Source: Eledone cirrhosa (Eukaryota). Taken from it: a stretch of DNA of 64,000 nt. Position numbers and translations under genes: made by a program. Below the pieces are notes generated by a model that made no database searches, had not been told where the DNA came from, and saw only the letters and a program-made list of their open reading frames with translations. Shown here one piece after another: positions 4,255-64,000 of this stretch (its first letter is position 1; every line of letters begins with the position of its first letter). The stretch is from contig OZ024754.1 in the NCBI GenBank assembly GCA_964016885.1, positions 18,042,001 through 18,106,000 of the forward strand. The letters are read 5' to 3'.

Positions 4255-4482
<228 letters not shown>

Positions 4483-13507: not shown

Positions 13508-13722
13508 CCTAACAGAGTAAGCCAGAGCTAAAGTGACTGCCAGAGGTAAACCCTCTGGAACTGCAACAACTAGAACAGTAACACCAATAATAAAGTATTT
13601 AACAAAAAGTTCTAGATATATTGTAGTTTTGTCACTACTCCAGACTTGTTTCTTAACTGCAAACTCATTAATACAAAATTTCATGACAAGAATAACAACA
13701 GTCAAAACAGCAATTGCTGTGC
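13508..13722 (-). CDS. ATP2B: PMCA exon: TM3-TM4 with PEGL motif
   Basis: GTAIAVLTVVILVMKFCINEF...FIIGVTVLVVAVPEGLPLAVTLALAYSVR; CAG/GTAAGT boundaries; 215 nt, phase 1-0. Confidence 0.97.
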
Positions 13723-16531: not shown

Positions 16532-18078
16532 CATCATCATCATCATCATCATCACCGTTTTACGTCCGTTCTTCCACGCTAGCATGGGTTAGACGGGTTG
16601 TCCTGTTGTGGGCAGTGTCTGGTCGGCTGACCATGCCTTGCTCATACAGGAACTGATCTGGCTTGATTTCTACAGCTGGATGCCCTTCCTAACACCAACC
16701 TCATTTACAGTGAGTGCTGGGTGCTTTTTCGTGGCGCCTACACGTCCACTTTACAGTGTGGGCTGGGTGCTTTTTTGCCGTGGCACCTCCACGACCACCT
16801 TGCGGTGGGGGGAGTGGGGGCATATTGTTTATATGCTTCAGCATGTACCCATGGGAGGTCGGGTACCCTGTATTACTGCGTGACGCCAGAAGTCACGGTC
16901 GTGTGTCATTGACTTTGAGAGGTGTAGTTGGGTAAGGTCAGCTTTTATCACCTCATCCCAAGTCATCTTGGGTCTCCCCACTCCGCGGTTTCCATCAACT
17001 TCTAGTGCTCTGCACCTTTTTATGCAGCTGTCATCCTTCATACGCATCACATGTCCATACCAGCGTAACCGCCTCTCCTGCACGCAGCATTTGATTCCTC
17101 TTATGCTCAGTCTCTCTCTCAATTCCTTTATGCTTTGTCGTTCACGTATATTACTGTTACACATCCATCGGAGCATGCAGGCTTCGTTTCTCTCTAATCT
17201 ACGTAAGTCTTCCACCTTCAGCGCCCAGGTCTCACTACCATGCAACATCGCTGTTCGGATACACGCATCATACAGTCTGCCTTTCATTCTGCAGCTAGCA
17301 GTGGTAGTAGTTCCCTAAACTTCTTCCATCCCGTTCTTACCCTAGTTATTGTACTTTCTGAGCACCCACCTCCGTTGCTAATTCGGTCACCTAGGTAGCA
17401 GAAGCTGTCTACTGTTTCTACAGGGCCCTCCCAGAGATTGGTGGTACTTGTTTCCTGTGGCTGTTTGCTTGCTGTTTCAGCACAGCTGCTGCATGTGAAT
17501 CCTACATTCTTAATTAAGCTTCCTGAGATCCCGCTACATCTCTTGTGTACCCATTGTTTGCATTTGGGGCAGAGAATGGAGTTCCTACCTACACCTTTCC
17601 TACATACTGAGCAAGGCCATTTCCCTGAGGGGATCTGGGTTCTGTTTTCTCGTCTACTTACAAGGACCTTAGTCTTTGTCATGTTGACTTTGAGGCCCTT
17701 TCTCTCTAGTCCCTGCTTCCAGGTTTGGAATTTATTCTCTAGTTCTACCATAGATTCAGCTATGAGTGCGAGGTCATCAGCATACAGGAGTTCCCATGGG
17801 CATCCGGTCTTAAACTCCTCCGTTATTGCCTGCAGGACTATGATGAACAGGAGAGGGCTAAGAACAGAGCCCTGGTGGACCTCAACCTGTACGCTAAATT
17901 CCTCGCTATACTCATTGCCAATCCTAACTTTGCTGACTGCTCCCCTATACATGGCTTGTACCGCTTTCACAAGCCATTCATCTACTCCTAGTTTTCTAAG
18001 AGCCCACCAGATTACTGCACGTGGAACTCTGTCAAAGGCTTTCTCAAGGTCGACAAATGCCAAGTAGAGTGGCTTACT
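16532..18078 (-). mobile_element. RTE LINE, longest copy (RT domain, PHD-like insert, C-terminus, 3' UTR)
   Basis: ORFs 17284-18063 ([31 protein letters not shown]) and 16838-17287, separated by a small deletion/frameshift. Confidence 0.95.
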
Positions 18079-26699: not shown

Positions 26700-27308
26700 T
26701 GTCAGGTTACAAGTTGGTGCTACTGGTAACATGTATCCCAGTACAACCTGTCTCATGGTCGGGTCGTTGGCAACTAAACTGGCAACCTCACCAAGGTTTC
26801 TTGGTGAGGAGGGTGACTTTGGATATCCTGCAGGACTAAAAACAAAACCTGTCAAAGGGCAAAAGAGCTCTTAAGAGTCAATGGCCATCCAAAATCACAG
26901 GGAGAGATGACCCCTTAGCGTTTGTCAAGGCAGAATTCTAGAAGGAAAACTCTGATATAACACCTGCAACCCTGATGGTATCCAATGATGTTGACTTGTT
27001 CTTCTTTTTGGTAAATATCATCTTGGTTAAGAGAGTGGGACTGGCTTTGTGCAGTGCCTTTGCTCACTATAAAAGCTTCACGGCACAGGCATTGCTTTAT
27101 ATCTCGAGATCTCTCTGCACTTGTCGTCACATGGTACCATGGGCCCAGCACTATGTGTCAGTAATTGTCACAAGTGTAGTGTTTGTACCAGAGTTTTCAA
27201 GTCGCTGGCTGGACTAAAAAGTCACACTCGTTCAGCGCATCGGTAGGGGTTCTCCTACATGGATATAAAGTAGTGGCCGTACTCGAAAACGAGTTGGTAG
27301 CCACCATA
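26700..27308 (+). mobile_element. ~610-bp non-autonomous non-LTR element (probably an internally deleted RTE derivative), copy 1
   Basis: Near-identical to 34769-35380 with the same ends; 3' part encodes a C2H2 remnant HKCSVCTRVFKSLAGLKSHTRSAH*; a fragment also lies at 21649-21767 (-). Confidence 0.7.
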
Positions 27309-35389: not shown

Positions 35390-36578
35390 ATCATCATCAT
35401 CATCATCATTATCGTTTAACGTCCATCTCCCACGCTACCATGGGTTAGACGGGAGTAGTCCCACTTGAGGCAAGGTTGGTCGGGTGACCGTGTCTCGCTC
35501 ATATATGGCAGGTTTTCTACGGCTGGATGCCCTCCCTAACACCAACCACATTTACAGTGTGGACTGGGAGCTTTTTACCGTGTTACCTACATGGCCACAT
35601 TACAGTGTGGACTGTGTTTTTTGTTGTGACACCTATACAACCTCATTAGTTTAGACTGGATGTTGTGGTACCAACATAACTTTACAGAGAAAGGGTGGTG
35701 TTGGTGGGAGTGGGAGGATGGAGTAGGGGTAGTGGGTTGGGTGTATATTTGGTTAAGAGGTGCCTACTGACTGTAGGATTCGCTTTGTACATAGGCAAGG
35801 CGGGTCTTCTGTATTACTGAGTGACGCCAAAGATCTCGGTCCAGTGACATTGTCTTAGAGAGGTGCAAGTGTGTAAGGTCGAAATTTATCATGTCGTTAC
35901 AGGTTTTTCTGGGTCTACCTACTACGTAACTTCCATCAATTTTGATCGCCCTGCACTTTTTTATACAGTTATCATCTTTTATGTGCATCACACAACCATA
36001 CCAACATAGTCTTCTCTCAAGTAAACAGCATCTGATCCCTCTTATTCCTAATTTCTCACTTAGATCATTTATGTTTTGCCATTCGTGTATATTATTATTA
36101 CACATCCAACGGAGCATGCATACTTCGTTCCTTTCCAGTCTGCGCAGGTCCCCTGCACACAATGCCCATGTCTCATTGTCATGTAACATTGCTGTTCGTA
36201 TACAAGCATCATACAATCTACCTTTCATTTTTAGAGAGAAACCTTTAGTGGTCAATAGTGATATAAGCTCTCTGAACTTTTTCCATCCCGTTCTGACTCT
36301 GGCTACTGTACTTTCAGAGCACCCTCCACCACTGCTGATTTTGTCACCTAGGTAACGGAAAGTGTCCACTATTTCTATAGAGCCATCTGGGCAGTAGAAG
36401 GAGCTAGTATCCTGTGGGCACTTGCTACTTATTGTACCTGAGCATCGGCCACATATAAAATCTATATTCTTAGATAGCTTACCTGTGATCCCACTACATC
36501 TTTTATGTACCCATAGTTTGCATTTGGGACATAAAATGGAATTTCTACCTACTCCGTTTCTACACACTGAGCATGGAT
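35390..36578 (-). mobile_element. RTE LINE 3' fragment
   Basis: ORF 35764-36567: cysteine-rich insert, FRYLGD, RRLCWYGCVM; 3' UTR and (CAT)n on the + strand. Confidence 0.9.
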
Positions 36579-37198
36579 ATATATATGCATTAAACTAATA
36601 TATTTCTTCCATGCACTGTATCATTTGCTTTGTTATTTGTTTACCCCTTTTTTACATACATATATATATACACACATATATTACATATATACACATATAT
36701 ATACACACACACATTATATATATATACATGTGTGTGTGTCCATACCTGTGTTTACATTTACTCTTTGCTTATACCCTGTAACTTAGTGGTTCGGCAAAGA
36801 GAGATAGATAAAATAAGTAGCACGCTTGAAAGAAATAAGTGCTAGTGTTGACATGATTGATTAAAAACTCTTCAAGGTGGTGTCCCAGCATGGCTGCAGT
36901 GTGTAAGGAGTGAAATCAATAAAAGAATAAAAGAATAGAAGGGGAAATCAAACAGGTGTAACTATTTCAGTGTGAAATATTTGCAGTATGTTGCAGATGC
37001 TTAGAGAATCTAAGTTTGGGTTTTTTATTTGGTTTTATAGACTAGATGAAATCGAAAATATACATTAGGAGAAGATTGAACATAAGAAAATATAAATAGA
37101 GTTAAGTGATGTTAAACAACAATAGATGACAATGGGGATTAATGAGCAGAGCTAGAATAAACTGTGTGTATATGTATGCAGGTATATATATGTGTGTG

Positions 37199-45364: not shown

Positions 45365-47049
45365 TTATGTAGGGGTAGGAGAAATGGGAGAGAGTGGTTT
45401 GAAGAATACAGATAGCTTAATCTAAATGTTGTGATAGGGGTCCAACAAGTGGTTTTATTATACTGCTTACTCTCAAAGTGACAACTTAGGCATTGTGTTG
45501 ATATTATCAAGTTTGGAATTATTTATTGCCACAGAGAGCAGGTTAATAGATGTAGAGAAGGAGGGAGATAGACAGAGGGAGAGAGAGACAGAGAGAGATA
45601 GATAGAGAGAGAGAGAGAGAGAAAGAAAAAAGTTAAGAGAAGGGGAAGGAAAGGCATAAACACAAGTTGATAGTTGTAGTTTGCTGATCATGCTTAAGTA
45701 TCCATTTATTACGATGAGTAAGGTACTGGTTAGTAGTGTGTGTGAGGAGGGGGGGGGGATATAATTAGGAAGTAGTTATTGAGTGAAATTAGTTAGCGAG
45801 AAAGTGGTGTAGTAGTCTGAGGTTCAAATTATGTTAAGTTAATTTAGCCTTCAGTTTGTGGTTGCAGTATAACGATCGTTCGATTCTGTCATTTAGTAAA
45901 TTGTTTTTAAGCTATCATACTCCACTGCACCAAACCTAGAAGCACACATAAAAAAACTTAACTTAAAGTGATTATTAAACAACACTACAAAACAAAATAT
46001 TTTAGACACAGATGGGGATAATGTAATATCAACTTCCCAACAACCAAATGGGAGACAAGTATTACACAACCCACTTGTACTGTTATCCCAACCTATCCAT
46101 CGTACAGTTGTTACCTATAACAAAAACTGTAATTGCCACCTACCCGAGAGATGCCCATTGAAGAATAAATGCCTGGAGTCCAACATTGTTTATCAATGCA
46201 CTGTTGAATCAAACGACCAGAAATGGTATTACGTTGGGTCTACCACTACCTCCTTTAAATCACGCTGGTATCGTCATCGATTTTCAATTAAACATCCTGA
46301 ACACTGTTATGTAACTACACTCGCTAATAAGACCTGGCAACTCCGTGAATACAACCGGCAGTTCACCCTAAAATGGGATAAATCATCCAGCGCTAGTGCA
46401 TATCGGAGTGGATTAAAATACTGCAGATTATGCAACCTTGAACTTTTTTATATCTTGAAATCTAAAAACAATTTACTAAATGACAGAATCGAACGATCGT
46501 TATACTGCAACCACAAACTGAAGGCTAAATTAACTTAACATAATTTGAACCTCAGACCACTACACCACTTTCTCGCTAACTAATTCCACTCAATACTTAC
46601 TTCCTAACTATACTCCCCCTCCCCATACTACTAACCAGTACCTTGCTTATCGTAATAAATGGATACTTAAGTACGATCAGCAAACTACAACTATTAACTC
46701 AGTGTATTTCCTTCCCCTTCCTAACTTTTTTCTCTCTCTCTCTCTCTATCTCCCTCCTTCTCTACATCTATTAACCTGCTCTCTGTGGCAATAAATAATT
46801 CCAAACTTGATAATATCAACACAATGCCTAAGTTGTCACTTTGAGAGTAAGCAGTATAATAAAACCACTTGTTGGACCCCTATCACAACATTTAGATTAA
46901 GCTATCTGAATTCTTCAAACCACTCTCTCCCATTTCTCCTACCCCTACATAACTCTCTCTCTCTCTCCCTCCCTCTCGCTTTCTTTCTCTCTTCCTTTTC
47001 TACTCTATCTTCCCCAATTACTCCCTTTAAGAAATACAAAGAAACCATA
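45256..47049 (+). mobile_element. 5'-truncated Penelope-like element with 5' inverted copy of its 3' end
   Basis: GIY-YIG ORF 46158-46538 (NIVYQCTV...YYVGSTTTSFKSRWYRH...CRLCNLE); 45256-45908 is the reverse complement of 46464-47049. Confidence 0.9.
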
Positions 47050-51005: not shown

Positions 51006-52710
51006 AAATCAAATTTTAAAATGTCATGTTAACAATTTTGAAAAGCAGTTTTCTATGTAAGTTTGAAATTAAATATATTTTCTGCTCTCAGGTTGTATTA
51101 TTTTACTATTTGTACAGAAACAATTAACTATTTATTTTAAATTTAATTTCATGTGTGATCTTGAATTGTTGAGTTGATCTTAGAAGAACAGAAACCAAAA
51201 CTGGGACAGGATTAATTGGGGTGTTATACAGACCATTCCTTAACATTGATTCCATTGAATAACAATTGTAATTAGACTAACAATCCAGGTTTATAGCTTT
51301 ACATATTTTCAACTCCTTACCTAAAAAGGGGGCAGAGGGAATTAACTACACCTTTAGAACAGCAAAATAAAAGGACGTTTGGACATTGGACAATACTGAA
51401 AAAGACATACAACGAAACAAAACAAATAAATACACAGAAAACTAAAGCCATACCAAAACTTTCAATGGAAAAAAATTAAAACCAACCGAAAATTCCCCAT
51501 TTTTCTAAATTAAAAACAGAAAACACTGGCTTAAATTAAATAAGCTAAGCCCTTGGGGATTGATTCAGAAAAAGAAAATGCTGCCCAGTGTGTAATTTTG
51601 AATACAATAAAATATATATCTTAAAATAACATTGCATAATAATCTAAAACAAAAAAACAAAAACAAAAAAAAAACAATCAATTATTGTAATCAGGATTGA
51701 ATTAATTTTAGATCATAAAATAAAATAAGAAATAAGAAAAAAAGCGTAATATATAAAAAATATGTTTGGGTAATACTTACAAATGAAAAACGATGACATA
51801 CAAATATAAACTCATGCTCAAATAAAACAAAAATATAAATTTAATTTTTGGTAAAAACAAAACAAAAAACGAAAGTTGCAAACAAAATTAGAAGAGTTTT
51901 AAAGGGGTTAGTGTAACGTATAATGTGTCTATTGAAAAGGGAATCTCAATGGTGACAGGGCAATGCCAGTTGTTGGAGGAATGGTAAGGCTGGTGAAAAC
52001 AAAATTGAAGATAAAGAAATGAAAGCAGAAACAAAAAATAAAGTGAGTTGGTAAGATCAAATATTATCTGAAATAGTTAACAGCTATTGCACTAGTTTGG
52101 TAATGTACTGGATAGAAAGTGTGCATTCAGTACCACCAATGGCTATTGTATTAGTTTGGTACTACACTATATAGAAAGTAAATGTGCACCAGGTAATTAC
52201 CACCAACAGCTAGTGTATTGGTACTATATTGTAGAGAAACTAAGTGTGCATGTAAACTATTAAAGCTAACAGCTGTTGGTATTATACTGTATAAAAACTG
52301 TGTACCAGAGTTACCAGCAACAGTTACTGTATTAGTATTACAGTGTATAGAAAGTGTGCATCAGGCCATGACCACTAAAGTAATGTGTGTGATACAGCTT
52401 GTGTAGTGAGAGAATCTATTTTAATAGTGAATTGTTAAGTTGAGAAGATAAATGTGATATCATGCAATGAAGCTGAGAAGTGACGGAATGAGGACAGGAA
52501 TATTAGAGAAATAATAAGGCAGGGTGCAGGACACAGGTAATGAATGATAAAAGAAGGACAATTACAGTTGTTTTAGTTAGGACAGGGATATCAGATTATG
52601 TATGCATGAATGGGAGGAGCAAGAGAAAGGGATGGAGTGAGATAGAGAGAGATATAAACACCGTAATCTGGCCCAAGCATGCCCAAAACAAAAATTCAAA
52701 ATACACATAC

Positions 52711-52740
52711 CAATATTCCCCTCTGGCTCATTAGCAAGCA
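52711..52740 (-). CDS. ATP2B: Candidate 30-nt PMCA splice-site-A cassette microexon (xLANEPEGNI)
   Basis: ttgttctttctgtttttattag|TGCTTGCTAATGAGCCAGAGGGGAATATTG|gtatgt; open and symmetric in phase 1, the phase required by exon 15233. Confidence 0.6.
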
Positions 52741-53756
52741 CTAATAAAAACAGAAAGAACAAATTGAATTAACTTAAGATGTAAAGCTGTAGAGTGATTA
52801 ACCAACAAAATCATGAAAAATAATAAAGCTGCTGTAGATTATAAAAGAAATGTAAAAATCATAAATAAAAAACAAAATATAGATTGGTATGTACACAATC
52901 GTTCTTATTAATTCTGGTGCAAAATGCAGTAAAATCTTGGTAATGGTTACTAATATCAAATACTGTCTACAGTAGCAGACATTTAAATAGGAAGTAATTT
53001 ATATATACTTTATAGAAGAGAGAATTTTGCTATAATAAATGACATCAAGATTTTTCTGCAAATTATATCAACAATGTAAATATTTACAAAGAGATGTGTA
53101 CATACCGACAAAAATAAAAAGTAATAAAAACTGAAATATTTATCAGTACTAGTAACATGGGACAATGTAGTGCCTTCATATCCTAAAAAGGAAAAAAGGA
53201 ACACACACACACTGGCATTAACAGCACATCACTCTGGCTTATAATTATAACAATTAAAACTAGTCAGTCTTGAATTAATTAATAATTAACTGCCATATTG
53301 TAGAAGTGGATATTTTAACACTTGTTACCAACTTGCCAAAAACCGCCTCTGGTTCTATGACCCCACCTCCCTCCCAACAAAAAACCCATCCATTTTAAAA
53401 GGTCCTTATTTAAATTAAAATTTTGAATCATAATTTGACATGAGAACTTTTTGTTAAGTTATACCTTAAGTTATACCTATACAAATACCTTCTTAATAAT
53501 AAATAGTAAATCGCTCCAAATTCTTCATTAATTTAAGTGCAGTGTACGTTATTAGATATATGATAATGAAAGAGATATTTCTTTTCACCATTAAATTATG
53601 CATAGCATCTATTTCATATCCTCTTTTATTTTGTATATTGAAGACAACAGAATGTCTCATATTATTCTTGACATACAGCACTTTTTAAAAACTACCTTAT
53701 TAGAAATAATGACATTAAATTAATTAAATTAAACAACATTTTGGTTTAGATTTTTG

Positions 53757-55442
53757 CCCAGTATAGTATTATTGAAATTATAAACTTATTCTTAGCTTTT
53801 TACAAAGTATAGTATTATTGAAATTATAAACTTATTCTTAGCTTTTTACCCAGTATAGTATTATTGAAATTATAAACTTATTCTTAGCTTTTTTCCCAGT
53901 ATAGTATTATTGAAATTTTAAACAAATTCTTAGAGTTTTGCCCAGTATTGTATTATTAAAATTATAAACTAATTCTTAGAGTTTTTCCCAGTATAGTATT
54001 ATTGAAATTATAAACTAATTCTTAGAGTTTTACTCAGTATAGTATTATTGAAACTATAAACTAATTCTTAGAGTTTTTCCCAGTATAGTATTATTGAAAC
54101 TATAAACTAATTCTTAGAGTTTTACTCAGTATAGTATTATTGAAACTATAAACTAATTCTTAGAGTTTTTCCCAGTATAGTATTATTGAAACTATAAACT
54201 AATTCTTAGAGTTTTTCCCAGTATAGTATTATTAAAATTATAAACTAATTCTTAGAGTTTTACCCAGTATAGTATTATTGAAACTATAAACTAATTCTTA
54301 GAGTTTTTCCCCGTATAGTATTATTAAAATTATAAACTAATTCTTAGAGTTTTACCCAGTATAGTATTATTGAAACTATAAACTAATTCTTAGAGTTTTT
54401 CCCAGTATAGTATTATTGAAACTATAAACTAATTCTTAGAGTTTTTCCCAGTATAGTATTATTAAAATTATAAACTAATTCTTAGAGTTTTACTCAGTAT
54501 AGTATTATTGAAACTATAAACTTATTCAGTATAGTATTATTAAAATTATAAACTAATTCTTAGAGTTTTATCCAGTATAGTATTATTGAAACTATAAACT
54601 AATTCTTAGAGTTTTTCCCAGTATAGTATTATTAAAATTATAAACTAATTCTTAGAGTTTTACCCAGTATAGTATTATTGAAACTATAAACTAATTCTTA
54701 GAGTTTTTCCCAGTATAGTATTATTGAAACTATAAACTTATTCAGTATAGTATTATTAAAATTATAAACTAATTCTTAGAGTTTTACCCAGTATAGTATT
54801 ATTGAAACTATAAACTAATTCTTAGAGTTTTACCCAGTATAGTATTATTAAAATTATAAACTAATTCTTAGAGTTTTTCCCAGTATAGTATTATTGAAAC
54901 TATAAACTAATTCTTAGAGTTTTTCCCAGTATAGTATTATTAAAATTATAAACTAATTCTTAGAGTTTTACCCAGTATAGTATTATTGAAACTATAAACT
55001 AATTCTTAGAGTTTTACTCAGTATAGTATTATTGAAACTATAAACTTATTCAGTATAGTATTATTAAAATTATAAACTAATTCTTAGAGTTTTACCCAGT
55101 ATAGTATTATTGAAACTATAAACTAATTCTTAGAGTTTTTCCCAGTATAGTATTATTAAAATTATAAACTAATTCTTAGAGTTTTACCCAGTATAGTATT
55201 ATTGAAACTATAAACTAATTCTTAGAGTTTTACTCAGTATAGTATTATTGAAACTATAAACTAATTCTTAGAGTTTTACCCAGTATAGTATTATTGAAAC
55301 TATAAACTTATTCAGTATAGTATTATTAAAATTATAAACTAATTCTTAGAGTTTTACCCAGTATAGTATTATTAAAACTATAAACTAATTCTTAGAGTTT
55401 TACCCAGTATCGTATTATTGAAATTATAAACTAATTCTTAGA
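53757..55442. repeat. 46-bp AT-rich minisatellite, about 38 units
   Basis: CCCAGTATAGTATTATT(G/A)AAA(C/T)TATAAACTAATTCTTAGAGTTTT(A/T); four identical 32-bp deletion variants. Confidence 0.97.
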
Positions 55443-55953
55443 AATTGTATTAAAGAAAAAAGAAAAAAGAAAAATTCAGTTTTAATAATTCGGTAGCTTG
55501 GAAAAACAAACTATGAATAAAGTTAGAGAATTACAAACTGATCAATACTTGTAAATCAGTATTGATCAGCAATCAATACATAGGAAATATATTGGGTGTG
55601 ACACACAAAATTGAAAAGTTGTTAATGCTTTGGCAATAAGTAATGTATTTTTTATGAACTAATGCAGAGCTGTGGAGTTATGTGTGGCGTTGTTACATAT
55701 GTGTGGCTGTTGTGAGGTATGTGTGGGTGTGACGTGTGGCAGTTGTAAGATGTGTGATATGTGTGGGAGTTGTAGGAGTTGTGAGATGTGTGTGGGAGTT
55801 GTGAGATAATGTGTGGGAGTTGTGAGATAATGTGTGGTGTTGTGAAATCATGATGAGTGTGCATAAATGCTAATAATGATTCAGTCACACAGCTTAGTCA
55901 TTATTTAGAGTGGAGGTACTTTATCTGAACTTATAGCAGGTAAAAAGCTCACA

Positions 55954-55995
<42 letters not shown>

Positions 55996-56117
55996 TTATT
56001 AAAATAATAGATTAAAGTTTAAAAGCGGAATAAATATTTGCTCTATGGATTTTATATATAAATTATCCTTATTGAGCCCTCTTCGGATTTTAGTCTTCAC
56101 ATTTATTATTATAATTA

Positions 56118-56578
56118 TCATCATCATTTTACGTCCGCTTTTCCCTGCTTGCAAGGGTGGGACGGGTCTTATTCAGCACAGCATCTCTCCACTTGTCACG
56201 GCCCTTCATCATCTCCACCGTGAGCTTCAGCGATCTGAGGTCTGTTCTCACCACCTCCGCTCATGTTTTTTGTGGTCTACCTCTACCACGTCTTCCTTCA
56301 ACTGGCATTTCCTGGCACTTCTTCAGCCATCGGTCATCCTCCATGCACATCACATGTCCATACCACCTCAGTCTCCTCTCCCGTACACTACATTCTATCC
56401 CTCTCAGACACAGTTTCTCTCTCAACACATTCATGCTGGGTCGTTCACGCACATTGACATTGCACATCCAATGGAGCATGCTTGCCTCATTTCTCTCCAG
56501 CCGTCGCATATCCTCTGCAGTTGGTGCCCATGTCTCACTACCAGGCAGCATCGCGCTCCTCACACAGGCATCATATAA
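56118..56578 (-). mobile_element. RTE LINE 3' fragment
   Basis: ETWAPTAEDMRRLERNE...[10 protein letters not shown]; tail at 56118. Confidence 0.9.
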
Positions 56579-56857
56579 CTCAAAATAGTCTCTTACAACA
56601 AAATAGCTCTAAGAGATATTTCTGAGCCATATATTATAATAGAATATAAAAGAAAATATAAAAGTTCCTAACTCAATATATACCGTTGATATATTCGGCT
56701 CCGTTAATTTGTTGAGCTATTTCAAATGTCGAATAAACCTGGCTGCTATTTTTAGTGGTGTAAGTTTGTGAGACACGCTAAGATACCATGTGCGCTATTA
56801 TATATAGCACACTATTCAGTTTCTTAATATACTTAGAAGTGTCTAGGATACTAATTC

Positions 56858-56935
56858 ATCACCCACTGATGAGCTTGAATTGGTAATTTTATTCACAATT
56901 AACATTGCGAAACAACACCAAGTTGTCTGGGTGAT
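56858..56935 (+). ncRNA. Type I hammerhead ribozyme with full stem III, paralog of 44503
   Basis: atcaccca-CTGATGA-gc...gc-GAAA-caac accaa gttg-TC-tgggtgat. Confidence 0.85.
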
Positions 56936-57606
56936 TGGTAGTTACCACAATTCTGGTTTGTATTTATTTTCTTGCTTTTTTCTTAAATTGAGACAAGCAA
57001 ACCCTATTGTCTATAGTTAGTATTCTTTTCACCTTAGCGAATCTGGTCCCTTACGATTTGAACACATATATGTATATATCTGTGTTCGTTTTTCTTTTAT
57101 ATTCTATTATAATATACGGCTGGGAAATATCTCTTTCTTAGAGCTATTTTGTTGTAAGAGACTATTTTGAGTTCCTAACTCAATATATACATTTGATATA
57201 TATAGTACTTTATATATATTTCACATAATTATCTCACAGAATATTGAATCTATGAGATTTTGATATTATTTATTTTGAGAACAATAGTTTAATACCAGTA
57301 TGAGTGACTTGTTATGGCTAGTTTGAGCAGAAAGAAACAAGAGAATTCTGGCTGGATATGGTCAATTTAAATGCTAAAGGGTTAAAGTAGTTATCTTTAT
57401 AAATAAAACACAAGGTTATATTATAACCACTTTGTTATAATAGCTTAGACATGGAAGTGGCAATTTCATATCTTCCTCCAAACCCATTCCTTTTATTGTT
57501 GACAAGATGTTCAGTGTTCATGCAACACTGATCTATAGCTACCTACCTATGTATCTATGTTCGGATAATACAACATCTATCTACTTGTCTATCTATCTAC
57601 CTACTT

Positions 57607-57738
57607 CCCCCCCTATTGGGGATTTTGATTGTTGTAATTGTTTGTTTTTATATTTTTTACACGACTGTATGTAAAATCCCCGGCATGTCTTTGTATTGTC
57701 TCCTTTTCTTGTGCGCCCTTGTGGCAAATAAAGAAATA
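57607..57738 (+). mobile_element. Short 5'-truncated copy of the same Tx1-like 3' UTR with 17-bp TSD
   Basis: Reverse complement of 58930-59065; TATCTATCTACCTACTT at both 57590-57606 and 57739-57755. Confidence 0.8.
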
Positions 57739-58219
57739 TATCTATCTACCTACTTACTTATCTGTCTAAATATATATTTGTTTATTTATCTCTTTGTCGA
57801 TCTACCTGTCTTTCAATCTAGGATTATCTATATACCAACATATCTATACCTATCTACCTGTCTTTTAATCTAGAATTATCTACCTATCTACCAACTTATC
57901 TCCATACCTATCTACCTGTCTTTTAATCTTGGATTATCTACCTATTTACCAACATATCTGTATATCTATCTACCTCTCTAATTATATATCTACAGCTAAC
58001 CCTTCTCAATCTATCTACCAGTCTAATTATATATATCTACCGCTAACCCTTCTCCATCTATCTATCTACCAACATATCTGTATACCTATCTACCTATCTA
58101 ATTATATATCTACAGATAACCCCTCTCTTTCTATATATATATCTACTTATCTCTCAGTTTATGTATATCTAACTCTCGACTTATCTATCTCACAATCACT
58201 CTCTCTCTATATATATACA

Positions 58220-58730
58220 TAAAATAAGGACGAGTTGGAAGAAGTTTAGGGAGCTGCTTCCTCTGTTGACAAAGAAGGGTTTCTCCCTGCACATGAAAGG
58301 CCGCTTATATGATGCCTGTGTGAGATGCGCAATGCTGCATGGTAGTGAGACATGGGCAGCAACTGGAGAGAAATGAGGCAAGCATGCTCCAATCAATGTG
58401 TAATGTCAATGTGCGTGAATGACCAAGCATAAATGAGTTGAGAGAGAAACTGTGTATAAGAGGGATAAGTTGTGGTGTGCAGGAGAGAAGGCTGAGATGG
58501 TATGGACATGTGATGTGAATGGAGGATGACCGCTGGGTAAAGAAGTGCCAAGAAATCCCAGTAGAAGGAAGATCACGAAAAACACGGGCAGAGGTGGTGA
58601 GAGTGGACCTCAGATCGCTGAAGCTCACGGAGGAGATGACGAAGGACTGTGACAAGTGGAGAGATGCTGTGCTGAATAAGACCCGCCCCGTCCTTGCAAG
58701 CAGGGAAAAGCGGACGTAAAATGATGATGA
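58220..58730 (+). mobile_element. RTE LINE 3' fragment, degenerate
   Basis: WKKFRELLPLL...[10 protein letters not shown]...SREKRT; (ATG)n tail. Confidence 0.85.
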
Positions 58731-58929
58731 TATATATATATATATACCTATCTACCTACATATCTGTATATCTACCTACTTGTCTAATTATATCTACCAC
58801 CTACCTCACTCTTTCTCTCTTTCTATCTATCTGTCTGTCATTCTACAGTTATCTACATATGTATATCTACCAGACAAGAACAACAGTAACAACAAAGCCC
58901 AAATCCCAATAGCAGTCCAAAGATAGATA

Positions 58930-59765
58930 TATTTCTTTATTTGCCACAAGGGTGCACAAGAAAAGGAGACAGTACAAGGACATATGCCGGTGATTTTACA
59001 TACAATCGTGTAAAAAATATTTTCAACAAACAAATTTAACAATTGAAATCCCCAATAGGGGGGAGGCGTTACAAATGGGTTGTTTAATACCACGTAGATA
59101 GAACAACCCTCAATGTCAGGAGCGCGTTGTGCAAGTGCTCCTTTCTTCCTTTTGCTCTCTTCTTCAACCTACAGGTTTATATACAGAGAAGGCCCAATCA
59201 CTTGTATCTTGGAAGGATCCCTGCCGGGTTGTCCGTGCCTGTAGATCTTGTCTCGAACTGGTAGAGCTCCTTGGTAGCACTGCCAGGCCAGGGACCTCTC
59301 GAAGCTGTCCATAGGTCCCGGGCGGAAAGTCCTACCATACAGACTGGTGAGCTCATCGTCTTCGACGCCTAGAGTCTCTCCGAGCACGTCGTCGCACTTG
59401 TGACGTACTAACCCTCTATAGAATGTCGAAGTGGAGTCTCTACTGATTGCTGTGCCCGCTTGACAGAGGACTGTGAGCGCCTGAGCGTGTTCAATGTGCC
59501 AGGCGCCCATCTTCTTCAGGCTCCGCTTGACCCAGAACTGCACCTCCGTCAACAAGACAAGTTGCGGGAAGACCTGTTTCACATATGGTGCCCACACCAG
59601 TTGGTCGGTGAGGAATACCTGGAGATGCCGTAGCCTCAGCGCAAGTTTGCGCATCATCAGCCACGGCATTCCCAGCCTTCCATTGGAAGGGTGCTGACAG
59701 CAGACGGATCTCCTCACCAGTGGAACCTGCTTCTTCCAAAGAAACTGTAAGAGCATGCATTGCCT
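58930..59765 (-). mobile_element. Tx1/L1-like LINE 3' fragment
   Basis: STSTFYRGLV...FERSLAWQCYQGALPVRDKIYRHG resembles the post-RT zf-RVT region of L1/Tx1 ORF2; 3' UTR ending GCAAATAAAGAAA. Confidence 0.7.
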
Positions 59766-60166
59766 ATCTACAAAGCAAAACCTAGTCAGTAGGCACCTCT
59801 TAACCAAATATACACCCCAACCCACTACCCCTACTCCCTCCTCCCACTCACCAACACCACCCTTTCTTTGTAAAGTTATGTTGATACCACAACATCCAGT
59901 CCAAAATAAATGAAGTCATGTAGGTGTCATAAAAAAAAAAACACACAGTCCACGCTATAATGTGGCCGTGTAGGTAACACGGTAAAAAGCTCCCAGCCCA
60001 CACTGTAAATGTAATGTTAGGAAGGGCATCCAGCCGTAGAAAACTTGCCACCAGATAGTCCTATACGAGCGAGACACGGTCACCCGACCAATCTTGCCTC
60101 AAGTGGGACAATTCCTGTCTAACCCATGCTAACGTGAAAGATAGACGTTAAACAATGATGATGATG
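59762..60166 (+). mobile_element. RTE 3' UTR-only fragment
   Basis: Reverse-complement homolog of 35390-35795; ends in (ATG)n. Confidence 0.8.
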
Positions 60167-60764
60167 CTTTCACACATTTTCTGTCTACCCAATTTCACTC
60201 ACAAGACACTGTCTCTAAGTATACAGTAGAAGACTTGTGCCATGCAGTGGTTTGGATGAAGATATGTGGAGTTAGAGTACAGGGATATATTAACTATTTA
60301 GTGTTATACAATTCTTGTCTGTTTTTGACAGCAGTTTTAACAGTTTAATGTGAGTTAGGGATTTTAATAGGAAATATGGATTTACAGCTTTCTCATAGCT
60401 GAAATAATTAAACATATACCACCATGTTTAATATATTCATGTGTAAGTCATATCTTTCTCCACTGAAAATAAGATGGAGAAAAACCTTTTAATTGTATTT
60501 ATAATTGCCTACATGAATATATAAATAAAACTCATTTAATGTTTACATAATCCTAGTGATGCCACCATCATAATTTAGCACATGCATTCCCCGCTAGCAA
60601 AGATTGGACACATCACAAATTGTGTCAGTACTCATATAAAGCTGCTGACATGTTTCAGACAGTTGGATTTCAATATAAATGTTAACATGCTCATTGCAAT
60701 TTCCGACCCAAACTTCAAACCAAGTGTTCCATTACTGTCAATCACAGTCCCTAAGCCATTAATT

Positions 60765-61070
60765 ATACACTGAGTCCCTAAGTAAGCAATTAATTATGAC
60801 CAGTCTCTATGTAAGCCATTAATTATAACCACACTCCCCAAGGAAGCCATTATTTATAACTACACTCCCTAAGTAATCAATTAATTATAACCCCAGTCCC
60901 TAGGCAAGCCATTAATTATAACCACAGCCCTAAGCAAGCCATTAATTATAACCATTGCATCTAAGTAAGCCATTAATTATAACCACAACTCCCAAGCAAG
61001 CCATTAATTATAATCAGACACTAGATAGACCATTAATTATTACCATAGCTCCTAAGCCATTAATTACAAT
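60765..61070. repeat. ~31-bp degenerate minisatellite
   Basis: CCCTAAGCAAGCCATTAATTATAACCACA repeated about 10 times. Confidence 0.8.
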
Positions 61071-61367
61071 ACTTGATATGATGAGTGGTAATTATCATTT
61101 CCCATTCTGTACCACAATTGGATGGATTAGCATAATTTATATTCACCATTTCTGTCTTAATAACAGGACCAACCCTGTTTCCTGTTCTTATTAAACTATC
61201 CAATATTAATTGCATACCTTCTGTTTTCATCACCAGGTTGCTAACATCATCCAGATTCATTAGTATCCATTATTTCTCTTTCATATTCCACAAATTGTTT
61301 CCTGTAAAACTTTCTTCATCACAGAACCAATCACCAACACAATAAGTAAGGAAGTGTCTTCTTAAAT

Positions 61368-61587
61368 AACACAAGACATGGCCTTATTTGGTTTAATGAG
61401 AGTTCCATTCACCATGACTGGACACAAGACTTGACCTCATGTAGTTTAATGAGAGTTCCATTCACCATGACTGGACACAAGACCTGGCCTTATGTGGTTT
61501 AATGAGAGTTCCATCAACCATCACTGGACACAAGACTTGACCTCATGTAGTTTAAAGAGAGTTCCATCCACCATGACTGGACACAAG
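61368..61587. repeat. ~53-bp minisatellite, about 4 units
   Basis: ACACAAGAC..G.CCT.ATGT.GTTTAATGAGAGTTCCAT.CACCATGACTGG. Confidence 0.85.
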
Positions 61588-62168
61588 GTTCACTTCATAC
61601 ATATCTGATATTATGTTGGTAAATTCTTCAGGTATGTCATATCTTCTCATTTTCTTTGGTAATGTTTGTTGTGATATACTGGCAAAAGTCTTTTGGAAAT
61701 CACTAAAACAAAGGTTTAACGACATTCTTATTTACCTGTAATATACCTTATTGTTAAGATTTGGTAATTTACCATATTCTGTCTCCATTATGGAAACTAC
61801 TTGCTCCTTTCACTGTATCTTCTCAAAACTGGGTACAATTCTTCCAAAAGTTAGTCTTTAAGATATCTTCATGACAACTACAGTTCTCACACCTGGACAA
61901 GTCTCTCCTTTTTTTAGTTATTTTAATTGTAATGCCTTTCTTCCATCCTGTGGAATTATTCTTTCTATTCTCCAGTACAACAAAAGTCTTGCAAGCACCA
62001 TTGATGCCATGATTCCACCATATTTTACCATCTCATTTGCAATTCTATTTACATCTGGTGTTTAGAGGTTTTGAAACCTCAGCTAGTGTAATTCCCCACA
62101 TTTTCGCGTGCAGATCCCGATTGATTAGCAAAGGCAATATTTTCTCCATTTTGTCGATTTAGTTTGTT

Positions 62169-62316
62169 TAGGCATGGGCAACCTTTTTTCAGGCAGTGAG
62201 CCACTTAGGATATGTCTCATCATAAGGTGAGCCGCACTACTAAAAAAGTTTGTGGCAATTTTCAAATTAAGCGTGGCATTCAGAAAAGCAAACAGGTCGC
62301 AGTTTACCCATGACTA
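62169..62316. mobile_element. Short hAT-like MITE
   Basis: TAGGCATGGGCAAC ... GTTTACCCATGACTA imperfect TIRs; TSD not clear. Confidence 0.4.
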
Positions 62317-62910
62317 ATTTAATACTTCTTCAAATTCTTCCCTCATGTTCTTATCTTTAGTCAGCAGTTTCCCCTCTGTATTTCTAATTAGGGGCTCTTT
62401 GTTTTCCTTGACTCTGCTCACAATTTATCTTTCAATGATATAATCTGATATTCCTCCTTTCACAATGACATTCCTGTATTTCTTCTTATCATGATTACTG
62501 AGTCTACCTGCCTATTAACATGTTTATATGTATATCTACTTATAAAATAGGTGATCTTTGATAACAATTACGAATAATTACTTACAGTTTCACATTTGAG
62601 CTTTGATATTATCTTCCTCCTCCTCTTTATCATCTTCTAGGTTTCATTTGTAATCCATCTTTTAGATCTTTCTCCTCTTCTAAGATTTACCTTTGCTGTT
62701 GCTGCCTTTCTGTAGAATTTCTAGGATACCATTACACATCTTTCCTTCTTTTCTTTTTACCAATTAATGTCTGTAGAACAAATCTATTTCTACATTCACA
62801 CAAACTTTTCTCTAAACATTTTTTCTGTTTCTCATTATTATTTGCAATATGATCAGTTTGATCTTCAAGTTTCTCCTCTGGATATGTCCAAGTATATTTT
62901 GGTGCTCAAA

Positions 62911-62955
<45 letters not shown>

Positions 62956-63167
62956 CATACACATAATCACAGTTAAACATCTATTTTTTCAGGCTTGCAT
63001 GGGTTAGATGGATTGTCCACATTATGAGGCAAGTTTGACCAGTTGGGTGTGCCATACCTTGCTCAAACAGAACTGTATTTTGGGAGTGTTTTTTACAGCT
63101 GGATGCGCTTCCTGACATCAACACACCAACCACATTTACAGTGAAGTATACATACATATATATATAT

Positions 63168-63222
<55 letters not shown>

Positions 63223-64000
63223 CATATATATATAAATAGGTTATGAAAGATTAAAGTCACCACACAAACACAGAAGCTTCATAATCCTCATCTTAAAGAT
63301 TGTGTGTATGTGTGTGTGTGTTGACACATGCCATATATATCAGCAACCTATACCGTCACTACCCCAATGACACAAGGTCAGGCAGGATGGGAGAATGCTC
63401 TCTAATATGCAGAACTCGAGGTGCAAGCCACCTTTTAGTCTTAGTAAACAAAATGTAGAAAACACAACCCTGATGGATAATGAGGGAGGCACATTGAAAT
63501 AACCACACCAAACTCACGGGACACAGTCCTGTGGGTGATCAACTCTGGCTCAGTAGCAGTGACCAGGGAAGTGCCATATAACAACGAGCAGACATTTACA
63601 GCCATTCCTCCATTCTTTGTTTAGCTATAGATTTAGAAAAAACATCATTACAGATTTCATTCATACACACATGCATTACATATACATAACTACACACATA
63701 TACATATGCACACATCATTGTCATTTTAAGACCCACTTTCCTTCCTAACAAGGGATGATGGGTCTATTTAGACCAAGTCAATACTGAAGCAGGGTTACTG
63801 ATCTCCCAGACAAGCCAGGAATCAGAGCATATATATACATATAAAATATGTGACTTCAGTGTAGTACTTTGCTATTATCTTTTGTAAGGTGGGAGGAGGT
63901 CTATGCAAATTACAATCATTGGTTCATCATTTAATTTTGTAATATTTTTTTATACATACATTACATACAAATACACACACATACATATATACATACGTAA

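Follow-up and report, generated by a model that had tools for sequence, protein, structure and literature searches.

What does a 30-nucleotide exon contribute to a calcium pump? The stretch of DNA analysed here (the window) comprises 64,000 nt of Eledone cirrhosa, positions 18042001-18106000 of contig OZ024754.1 in a genome of about 3.0 Gb, and its minus strand carries part of a gene for a PMCA (P2B Ca2+-ATPase). The identity of the gene is given by minus-strand exons encoding the PEGL and DKTGT motifs, by the 95-96% identity of exon 15233-15006 to the PMCAs of Argonauta and Octopus, and by exon-by-exon tblastn with the proteins of two relatives against the window and 100 kb on each side, which also fits PMCA. 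A Pfam scan of 16 open reading frames returned pieces of retroelements and no PMCA domain. The introns hold retroelement remnants (a reverse transcriptase with a PHD finger and a PHD finger, at 17284-18078 and 35764-36594, minus strand), among which we list a GIY-YIG match on the plus strand at 45972-46538 that scores under Pfam's cut-off. Beyond window base 1 lie two alternative last coding exons (site C), on the minus strand about 31.3 kb and about 42.2 kb away, the identity being 100% with O. bimaculoides for one, over 132 residues, and 97% with Argonauta for the other; part of the PMCA exon near window 1060-915 recurs as a degenerate inverted copy inside an intron, on the plus strand, about 1.25-1.33 kb before base 1. 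We will argue that the 30-nt exon alone is ordinary, and that a motif built at its junction with a second cassette may be what matters.

The tblastn searches place three cassettes between the constitutive exons C1 and C2: A36 (36 nt), A30 (30 nt) and A78 (78 nt). Each is phase 1-1 and preserves the frame, and all eight combinations are open, adding 0-48 residues. The introns C1-A36, A36-A30, A30-A78 and A78-C2 measure 9,477, 53,137, 11,260 and 26,139 nt, respectively. The features are given below in the order of transcription; X1, X3, X10 and X19 are spliced contigs from four sequencing runs, to which we return.

Contig 18157391-18157534 (window numbering extended, 115534-115391), minus strand, outside the window: constitutive exon C1, last base G (contig X19).
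Contig 18147878-18147913 (window numbering extended, 105913-105878), minus strand, outside the window: cassette A36, ending G-Q-N-V-P + T (contigs X1, X3 and X10).
52741..64000, minus strand: in-window part of the 53,137-nt intron up to A36, which continues beyond the window.
52741..52765, minus strand: A30 acceptor, a pyrimidine tract and TAG, scoring 9.6 against 6.6-18.5 for 16 constitutive exons.
52740-52711, minus strand: cassette microexon A30, phase 1-1 (sequence, junction contigs X19, X3 and X10, cephalopod proteins).
52705..52710, minus strand: A30 donor GTATGT, scoring 4.7, below most constitutive donors in this gene (mostly 8-12).
52678..52682, minus strand: GCATG, a putative RBFOX-type site at +29 from A30.
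52466-52461, minus strand: TGCATG, a putative RBFOX-type site at +245 from A30.
41450-41373, minus strand: cassette A78, 26 residues, phase 1-1, with AG/GT borders and 96% tblastn identity to O. bimaculoides isoform X3.
15233-15006, minus strand: constitutive exon C2, 228 nt, which closes the loop and leads into TM3 (tblastn, contigs).
13508..13722, minus strand: PMCA exon encoding TM3-TM4 and the PEGL motif (motif, tblastn).
4347..4482, minus strand: PMCA exon with the DKTGT phosphorylation motif (motif, tblastn).

Is the 30-nt exon real? A30 is a genuine cassette microexon that is included in transcripts. It is short, a multiple of three in length, free of stop codons, bordered by AG and GT and compatible in phase. 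An earlier note, made from the letters of the window, had described a pyrimidine tract ending in TAG, 30 open nucleotides, a G before the donor GTATGT, phase 1-1 in frame with exon 15233-15006 and the peptide x-LANEPEGNI, and every one of these features is present in the sequence. The junction joining 52711 to 15233, which that note had set as a check, is found in three of the four runs (X19, X3 and X10); the fourth (X1) skips A30. X19, a contig of 3,479 nt, matches the window over 230 letters without difference, is spliced at both ends of exon 15233 and has a G before A30. X3 and X10 come from relatives and are 90-95% alike; in both, A30 is preceded by T, and X10 is also spliced at both ends of exon 15233. 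The order of exons is thus C1-A30-C2 in X19, A36-A30-C2 in X3 and X10, and A36-C2 in X1, the upstream exon in X19, X3 and X10 being read from the one base that precedes A30. The runs are of guessed or unrecorded kind and carry no tissue labels, and one contig per run speaks to presence only. Inclusion is what the one contig of this species (X19) records; two of the three contigs from relatives include A30 and one (X1) skips it, as do four of the 20 cephalopod PMCA proteins fetched that cover the loop. No junction contig for A78 was seen in the four runs on exon 15233.

Two artefacts could imitate such an exon. Since C2 has a single match in the genome (the assembly may be incomplete), a retrocopy behind the spliced contig X19 is rejected, and a chance match to splice sites is rejected by the junction contigs. 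From sequence alone, A30 is a fair but not a unique call: with a splice-site matrix derived from 16 of the gene's exons, it ranks sixth among 51 stop-free candidates of 3n length in 100 kb of introns, and A36 ranks first. No protein supports the candidates at ranks 2-4, of which two share the acceptor at 26827 and one lies at 111776, outside the window; we attribute them to chance. At the start of C2 a tandem acceptor, at window 15233 and 15227 on the minus strand, offers two sites 6 nt apart, and gene models of O. sinensis differ by two residues there. An AT-rich 46-bp minisatellite occupies window 53746-55442, about 1 kb upstream of the A30 acceptor.

The place of A30 in the protein is between TM2 and TM3, in the first cytosolic loop, which is the position of vertebrate site A; the earlier claim of an alternatively spliced, frame-preserving insert at this position of the pump is borne out both by this location and by the skipping described above. 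The distance of 37.5 kb that the note gave to the next exon needs adjusting: 37,477 nt separate A30 from the next constitutive exon, C2, but the next exon is A78, 11,260 nt away. Nor is the exon hidden, as RefSeq models of two Octopus species already contain it. These models are automatic (for example, XP_052827689.1 of O. bimaculoides and XP_036363427.1 of O. sinensis); they, Argonauta GAB1599825.1 and Sepia CAE1239789.1 carry the peptide in the same or nearly the same form, whether the neighbouring cassettes are present or absent. Altogether the A30 peptide is found in 16 of the 20 cephalopod proteins (three more were fetched without the region); the Octopus cluster has 28 members, of which 15 were covered. 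Thus A30 is already known at the level of annotation, and site-A splicing is a known phenomenon.

Is A30 a cephalopod insert, as the note supposed? It is not, since orthologues of A30 occur across molluscs, nemerteans and a brachiopod. The 36 + 30 pair appears in isoform series of gastropods, bivalves, a chiton, nemerteans and Lingula. All four forms (both exons, either or neither) are present in Haliotis and in Physella, and part of the four in Patella, Babylonia, Pomacea, Biomphalaria, Pecten, Mytilus, Magallana and Mercenaria, as well as in the chiton Liolophura, the nemerteans Lineus and Tubulanus and the brachiopod Lingula. Such series mark exon limits without genomes and are mostly RefSeq predictions, so that some of the combinations may not exist. 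The counterpart of A30 is about ten residues long, with eight in Mercenaria and 11 in Physella. In oysters, an extra small exon between A36 and A30 breaks the motif described below, and in Physella two alternatives replace its second residue. Both exons are absent from the two named annelid loops (Owenia and Helobdella). A further hydrophobic cassette of 7-10 residues (V-x-V-V-A-Y type) lies upstream of A36 in gastropods and bivalves (P0044, P0045, P0049, P0091, P0196, P0214, P0223, P0249 and P0253); none was found in this genome, where a search for other hidden cassettes in the 100 kb of intron space found none among the 51 candidates that resembles the VTVVAY-type exon of bivalves and gastropods.

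What, then, is made when the two exons meet? A36, which lies 53 kb upstream of A30 and outside the window and was therefore invisible to the author of the earlier note, ends with a Pro codon followed by T, and A30 starts with TG; the joined codon is Leu, giving Q-N-V-P-L-L. When C1, with its last base G, is joined to A30, the junction codon is Val, and when A36 is joined to A78 or to C2 the result is Pro-Tyr. Pro-Leu-Leu consequently arises in only two of the eight combinations, those in which A36 is joined directly to A30. From A30 come two of the three bases of the junction codon, whether it reads Leu or Val, together with the second Leu and an acidic tail (LANEPEGNI).

Sequence analysis of 170 distinct loops shows that this arrangement is kept. 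For a test independent of the motif, the junction residue was left out of a profile of the A30 body and the loops were scored on the remainder; 80 of the 170 scored at least 9, and the cut-off dropped 90, including true exons of heterobranchs (pond snails) and heterodont clams that score 6-9. Only two residues occupy the junction in those 80 loops: Leu, always preceded by Pro, in 45 and Val in 35. Conversely, the residue that follows the terminal Pro of A36-like exons (85 of the 170 loops) is Leu in 57, Tyr in 22, Gln in two, His in two, Ser in one and Lys in one, the last a false match. With the exception of that Lys, the codons for these residues begin, or can begin, with a pyrimidine. An exon-final pyrimidine is found at only two of 16 constitutive donors in this gene, so that A36 keeps the less common last base across phyla. 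Because the pyrimidine end is kept by A36 though it is rare among constitutive donors, we infer selection on the Leu.

The loops that contain both exons point the same way. In 31 such loops, Pro and the first Leu are invariant (31 of 31 each) and the second Leu is Leu in 27 and Ile in four; these loops were picked by eye, partly by the motif, and include many isoforms of few lineages, so that the counts are not independent. Position −4 is Gln in 22 of the 31, Pro in six, and Val, Leu and His in one each, and is never Asp or Glu; Glu occupies −5 in four, and downstream an acid (Asp or Glu) stands at +4 in 24 loops and at +10 in 23. An alignment of 30 of these loops has only four further invariant columns, three of them at the end of the loop, and PL[LI] occurs in 0.7% of shuffled loops. 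Judged by these alignments, the junction motif is the best-conserved spot of the loop. P-L-L/I is absent from all 29 printed arthropod, nematode and vertebrate loops, which are single representatives and make this a weak absence. In Trichinella, P0163 differs from P0158 by an alternative insert in the same loop that contains Leu-Leu and, at −5, Asp; a comparable signal may have arisen there independently. An AlphaFold2 model of a cephalopod isoform with both exons (mean pLDDT 65) gives residues 287-378 a pLDDT below 50 and no secondary structure, with the motif at 303-305; the loop is predicted to be disordered, and the motif would for this reason be accessible.

One could imagine that sequence is secondary here. 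In mammalian PMCA2 (ATP2B2), the w/x/y/z forms of site A likewise combine three small frame-preserving cassettes in the same TM2-TM3 loop, giving inserts of 45, 31, 14 and 0 residues according to the available part of PMC5641333, and the site is known to affect membrane targeting. By analogy with the w/x/z forms, the three cassettes of the cephalopod gene could tune loop length over 0-48 residues and so direct apical versus basolateral delivery or partitioning into lipid domains. The mammalian rule cited in the same text requires more than 30 inserted residues and is independent of sequence, in that a scrambled insert also works; here more than 30 residues are reached only when A78 is combined with another cassette (36, 38 or 48). 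Among the proteins fetched, only Octopus models contain A78, a restriction that counts against such a rheostat, and length leaves unexplained both an invariant Pro-Leu-Leu/Ile in an otherwise poorly conserved loop and the pyrimidine kept at the end of A36. No likeness between the vertebrate inserts and the cassettes is apparent by eye among the few vertebrate loops fetched; the effect of the mammalian inserts is reported to depend on length, whereas here a fixed motif is built at the junction. We regard the length reading as unlikely.

We propose instead that A36 and A30 act as an AND gate of two exons, which yields a non-canonical dileucine sorting signal, a proposal to which we give about an even chance of being correct. 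Splicing A30 directly behind A36 completes Gln-x-x-Pro-Leu-Leu over the junction, a sequence that would be read by a clathrin adaptor (AP-1, AP-2 or AP-3) through its sigma subunit. Pumps with both exons would then be endocytosed, or sorted to basolateral or somatodendritic membranes, and forms with a single exon (Val-Leu or Pro-Tyr) would stay on the default route. The genome encodes exons for sigma1, sigma2 and sigma3, of which sigma2 was identified also by analysis, and sigma1 and sigma3 are presumably the subunits so named. The gate is proposed because the pattern of the loop matches the modifiers of dileucine signals in the available text of PMC2882754, because these sigma exons exist and because there are precedents. 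As far as that text goes, Pro at −1 at least doubles dileucine uptake, Gln at −4 supports AP-2 binding almost as well as Glu, and acids downstream help.

How close does the motif come to the canonical signal? Like [DE]XXXL[LI], it has the Leu-Leu or Leu-Ile pair, Pro at −1, a mostly hydrophilic −4, downstream acids and a cytosolic setting that is predicted to be unstructured; it differs in having no acid at −4, in lying in an internal loop and in being assembled from two exons via a split codon. Because none of the 31 loops has Asp or Glu at −4, we do not class it as [DE]XXXL[LI]; by analogy with the partially available PMC2882754, it may work like the canonical dileucine. Against the dileucine reading stand the nine of 31 loops without Gln at −4, the location in an internal loop rather than a tail and the length dependence cited for mammalian site-A targeting. 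When AP-2 sigma (P0311) was modelled in complex with residues 288-319 of the Argonauta isoform that has both exons, the scores were 0.32, 0.31 and 0.32, with the mark at 0.34 and three controls at 0.00-0.01; this prediction, made without alignments and without alpha-adaptin by a tool unproven on peptides, is evidence neither way.

The precedents are ion transporters. The sources, as far as available, describe a C-terminal di-leucine in PMCA4b (PMC11904214), a dileucine in the spliced exon 21 of NKCC1 (PMC7761970), AP-1-dependent dileucine sorting of ATP7B in neurons (PMC4294670) and a YEGL lysosomal motif added to PMCA2b by site-C splicing (bioRxiv 10.1101/2025.10.01.679724). NKCC1, PMCA4b and PMCA2b resemble the present case in that sorting motifs are borne by ion transporters and, in NKCC1 and PMCA2, switched by splicing. 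They differ in that the motif lies in one exon or in the C-terminal tail, and the available portions of these sources report none that needs two joined cassettes.

The junction motif could also be functional with another ligand, be it an acidic lipid, autoinhibitory surfaces of the pump itself or some other partner, so that it would tune activity and not location. This region of the loop is a lipid-sensing site in mammals. The motif may in this case be homologous to a vertebrate stretch, E-[IM]-Q-P-L-[NK]-S, that occurs in eight vertebrate loops among the 29 printed non-lophotrochozoan loops, a homology assessed only by eye. With its single Leu and its place within a constitutive exon, the vertebrate stretch counts against this reading, as does the fit of the lophotrochozoan pattern to the dileucine modifiers in the accessible part of PMC2882754. 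In P0148, P0152 and P0169, for example, the vertebrate stretch resembles the junction motif with one Leu. We consider this alternative rather unlikely, if a shade less so than a rheostat of length.

Which of the two exons would be the switch? The motif (U)GCAUG is that of RBFOX, and GCATG at +29 and TGCATG at +245 are present downstream of A30 as the earlier note had claimed. These introns contain 47 copies of TGCATG in 100,157 nt; 12% of 1,998 intron segments of 300 nt contain it, and 3.5% hold a pair like that of A30, so that the excess of RBFOX-type motifs is small, post hoc and at most suggestive. This pair and the weak donor are what speak for the version of events in the note, a neural, RBFOX-activated and cephalopod-specific insert acting alone, which we hold to be very improbable. 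The orthologues far outside cephalopods count against it, as does the presence of A30 in six of six Logan-derived cephalopod-like proteins, with A36 in three of the six, which looks like broad inclusion of A30. Likewise, no UGC precedes A30. Exons that depend on the eMIC are marked by UGC near the acceptor and CUAAY branch points, according to the available text of PMC8797185 and PMC10551640. A30 shares with neural microexons that depend on eMIC/SRRM3-4 its short 3n length and a region predicted to be disordered, and lacks their cis marks, having no TGC in the 40 nt upstream, whereas A36 has TGC at −24, −21 and −9 and ACTAAT at −37. A neural switch, if there is any, would more likely be A36 than A30. 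Within the proposed gate, A36, with its eMIC/SRRM-type marks, would act as the tissue switch, and A30 would be the half that is included more broadly, a weaker part of the proposal.

A bolder form of the two-exon gate would make it ancient in lophotrochozoans. Two skippable microexons, 53 kb apart here, would each hold half of a dileucine signal; interrupter exons, as in oysters and pond snails, would break or alter it; a neuron-type switch at A36 would re-route the pump; and forms without the motif would serve apical export, as in shell building. The gate would on this account be more than 500 million years old. We advance it tentatively, as a possibility with the chances somewhat against it. 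The Tridacna clone P0111 (1,198 residues; its Asp285 and Asn320 agree with PMC5641333) contains A36 but not A30 and lacks the motif; the available part of that paper places the Tridacna pump apically, using antibodies without demonstrated isoform specificity; as a single clone, it is not counted as support for the gate.

Finally, what is new? Splicing databases cover octopus and may list A30. Two bivalve papers (PMC5641333 and PMC6987452) treat the region, in their available parts, as one length insert and infer an apical location by comparison with human PMCA2, with the cassettes unnamed. An octopus RNA-seq preprint (bioRxiv 10.64898/2026.09.05.749416) mentions neither PMCA nor ATP2B in its main text, and its supplements may list A30. 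We found no published description of the lophotrochozoan pair, of A30 or of the junction motif in a search that most subscription journals lay outside. What is new, as read from the exon sequences, is a Pro-Leu-Leu/Ile that is built by a split codon only when A36 and A30 are joined. If the proposal is true, a linear motif exclusive to the double-inclusion isoform would be a compact piece of combinatorial splicing logic, and the junction motif would give a sequence-based rule for the localisation of invertebrate PMCAs. Such a rule would matter for how neurons clear calcium and for the question of which isoform supplies calcium to the shells of molluscs.
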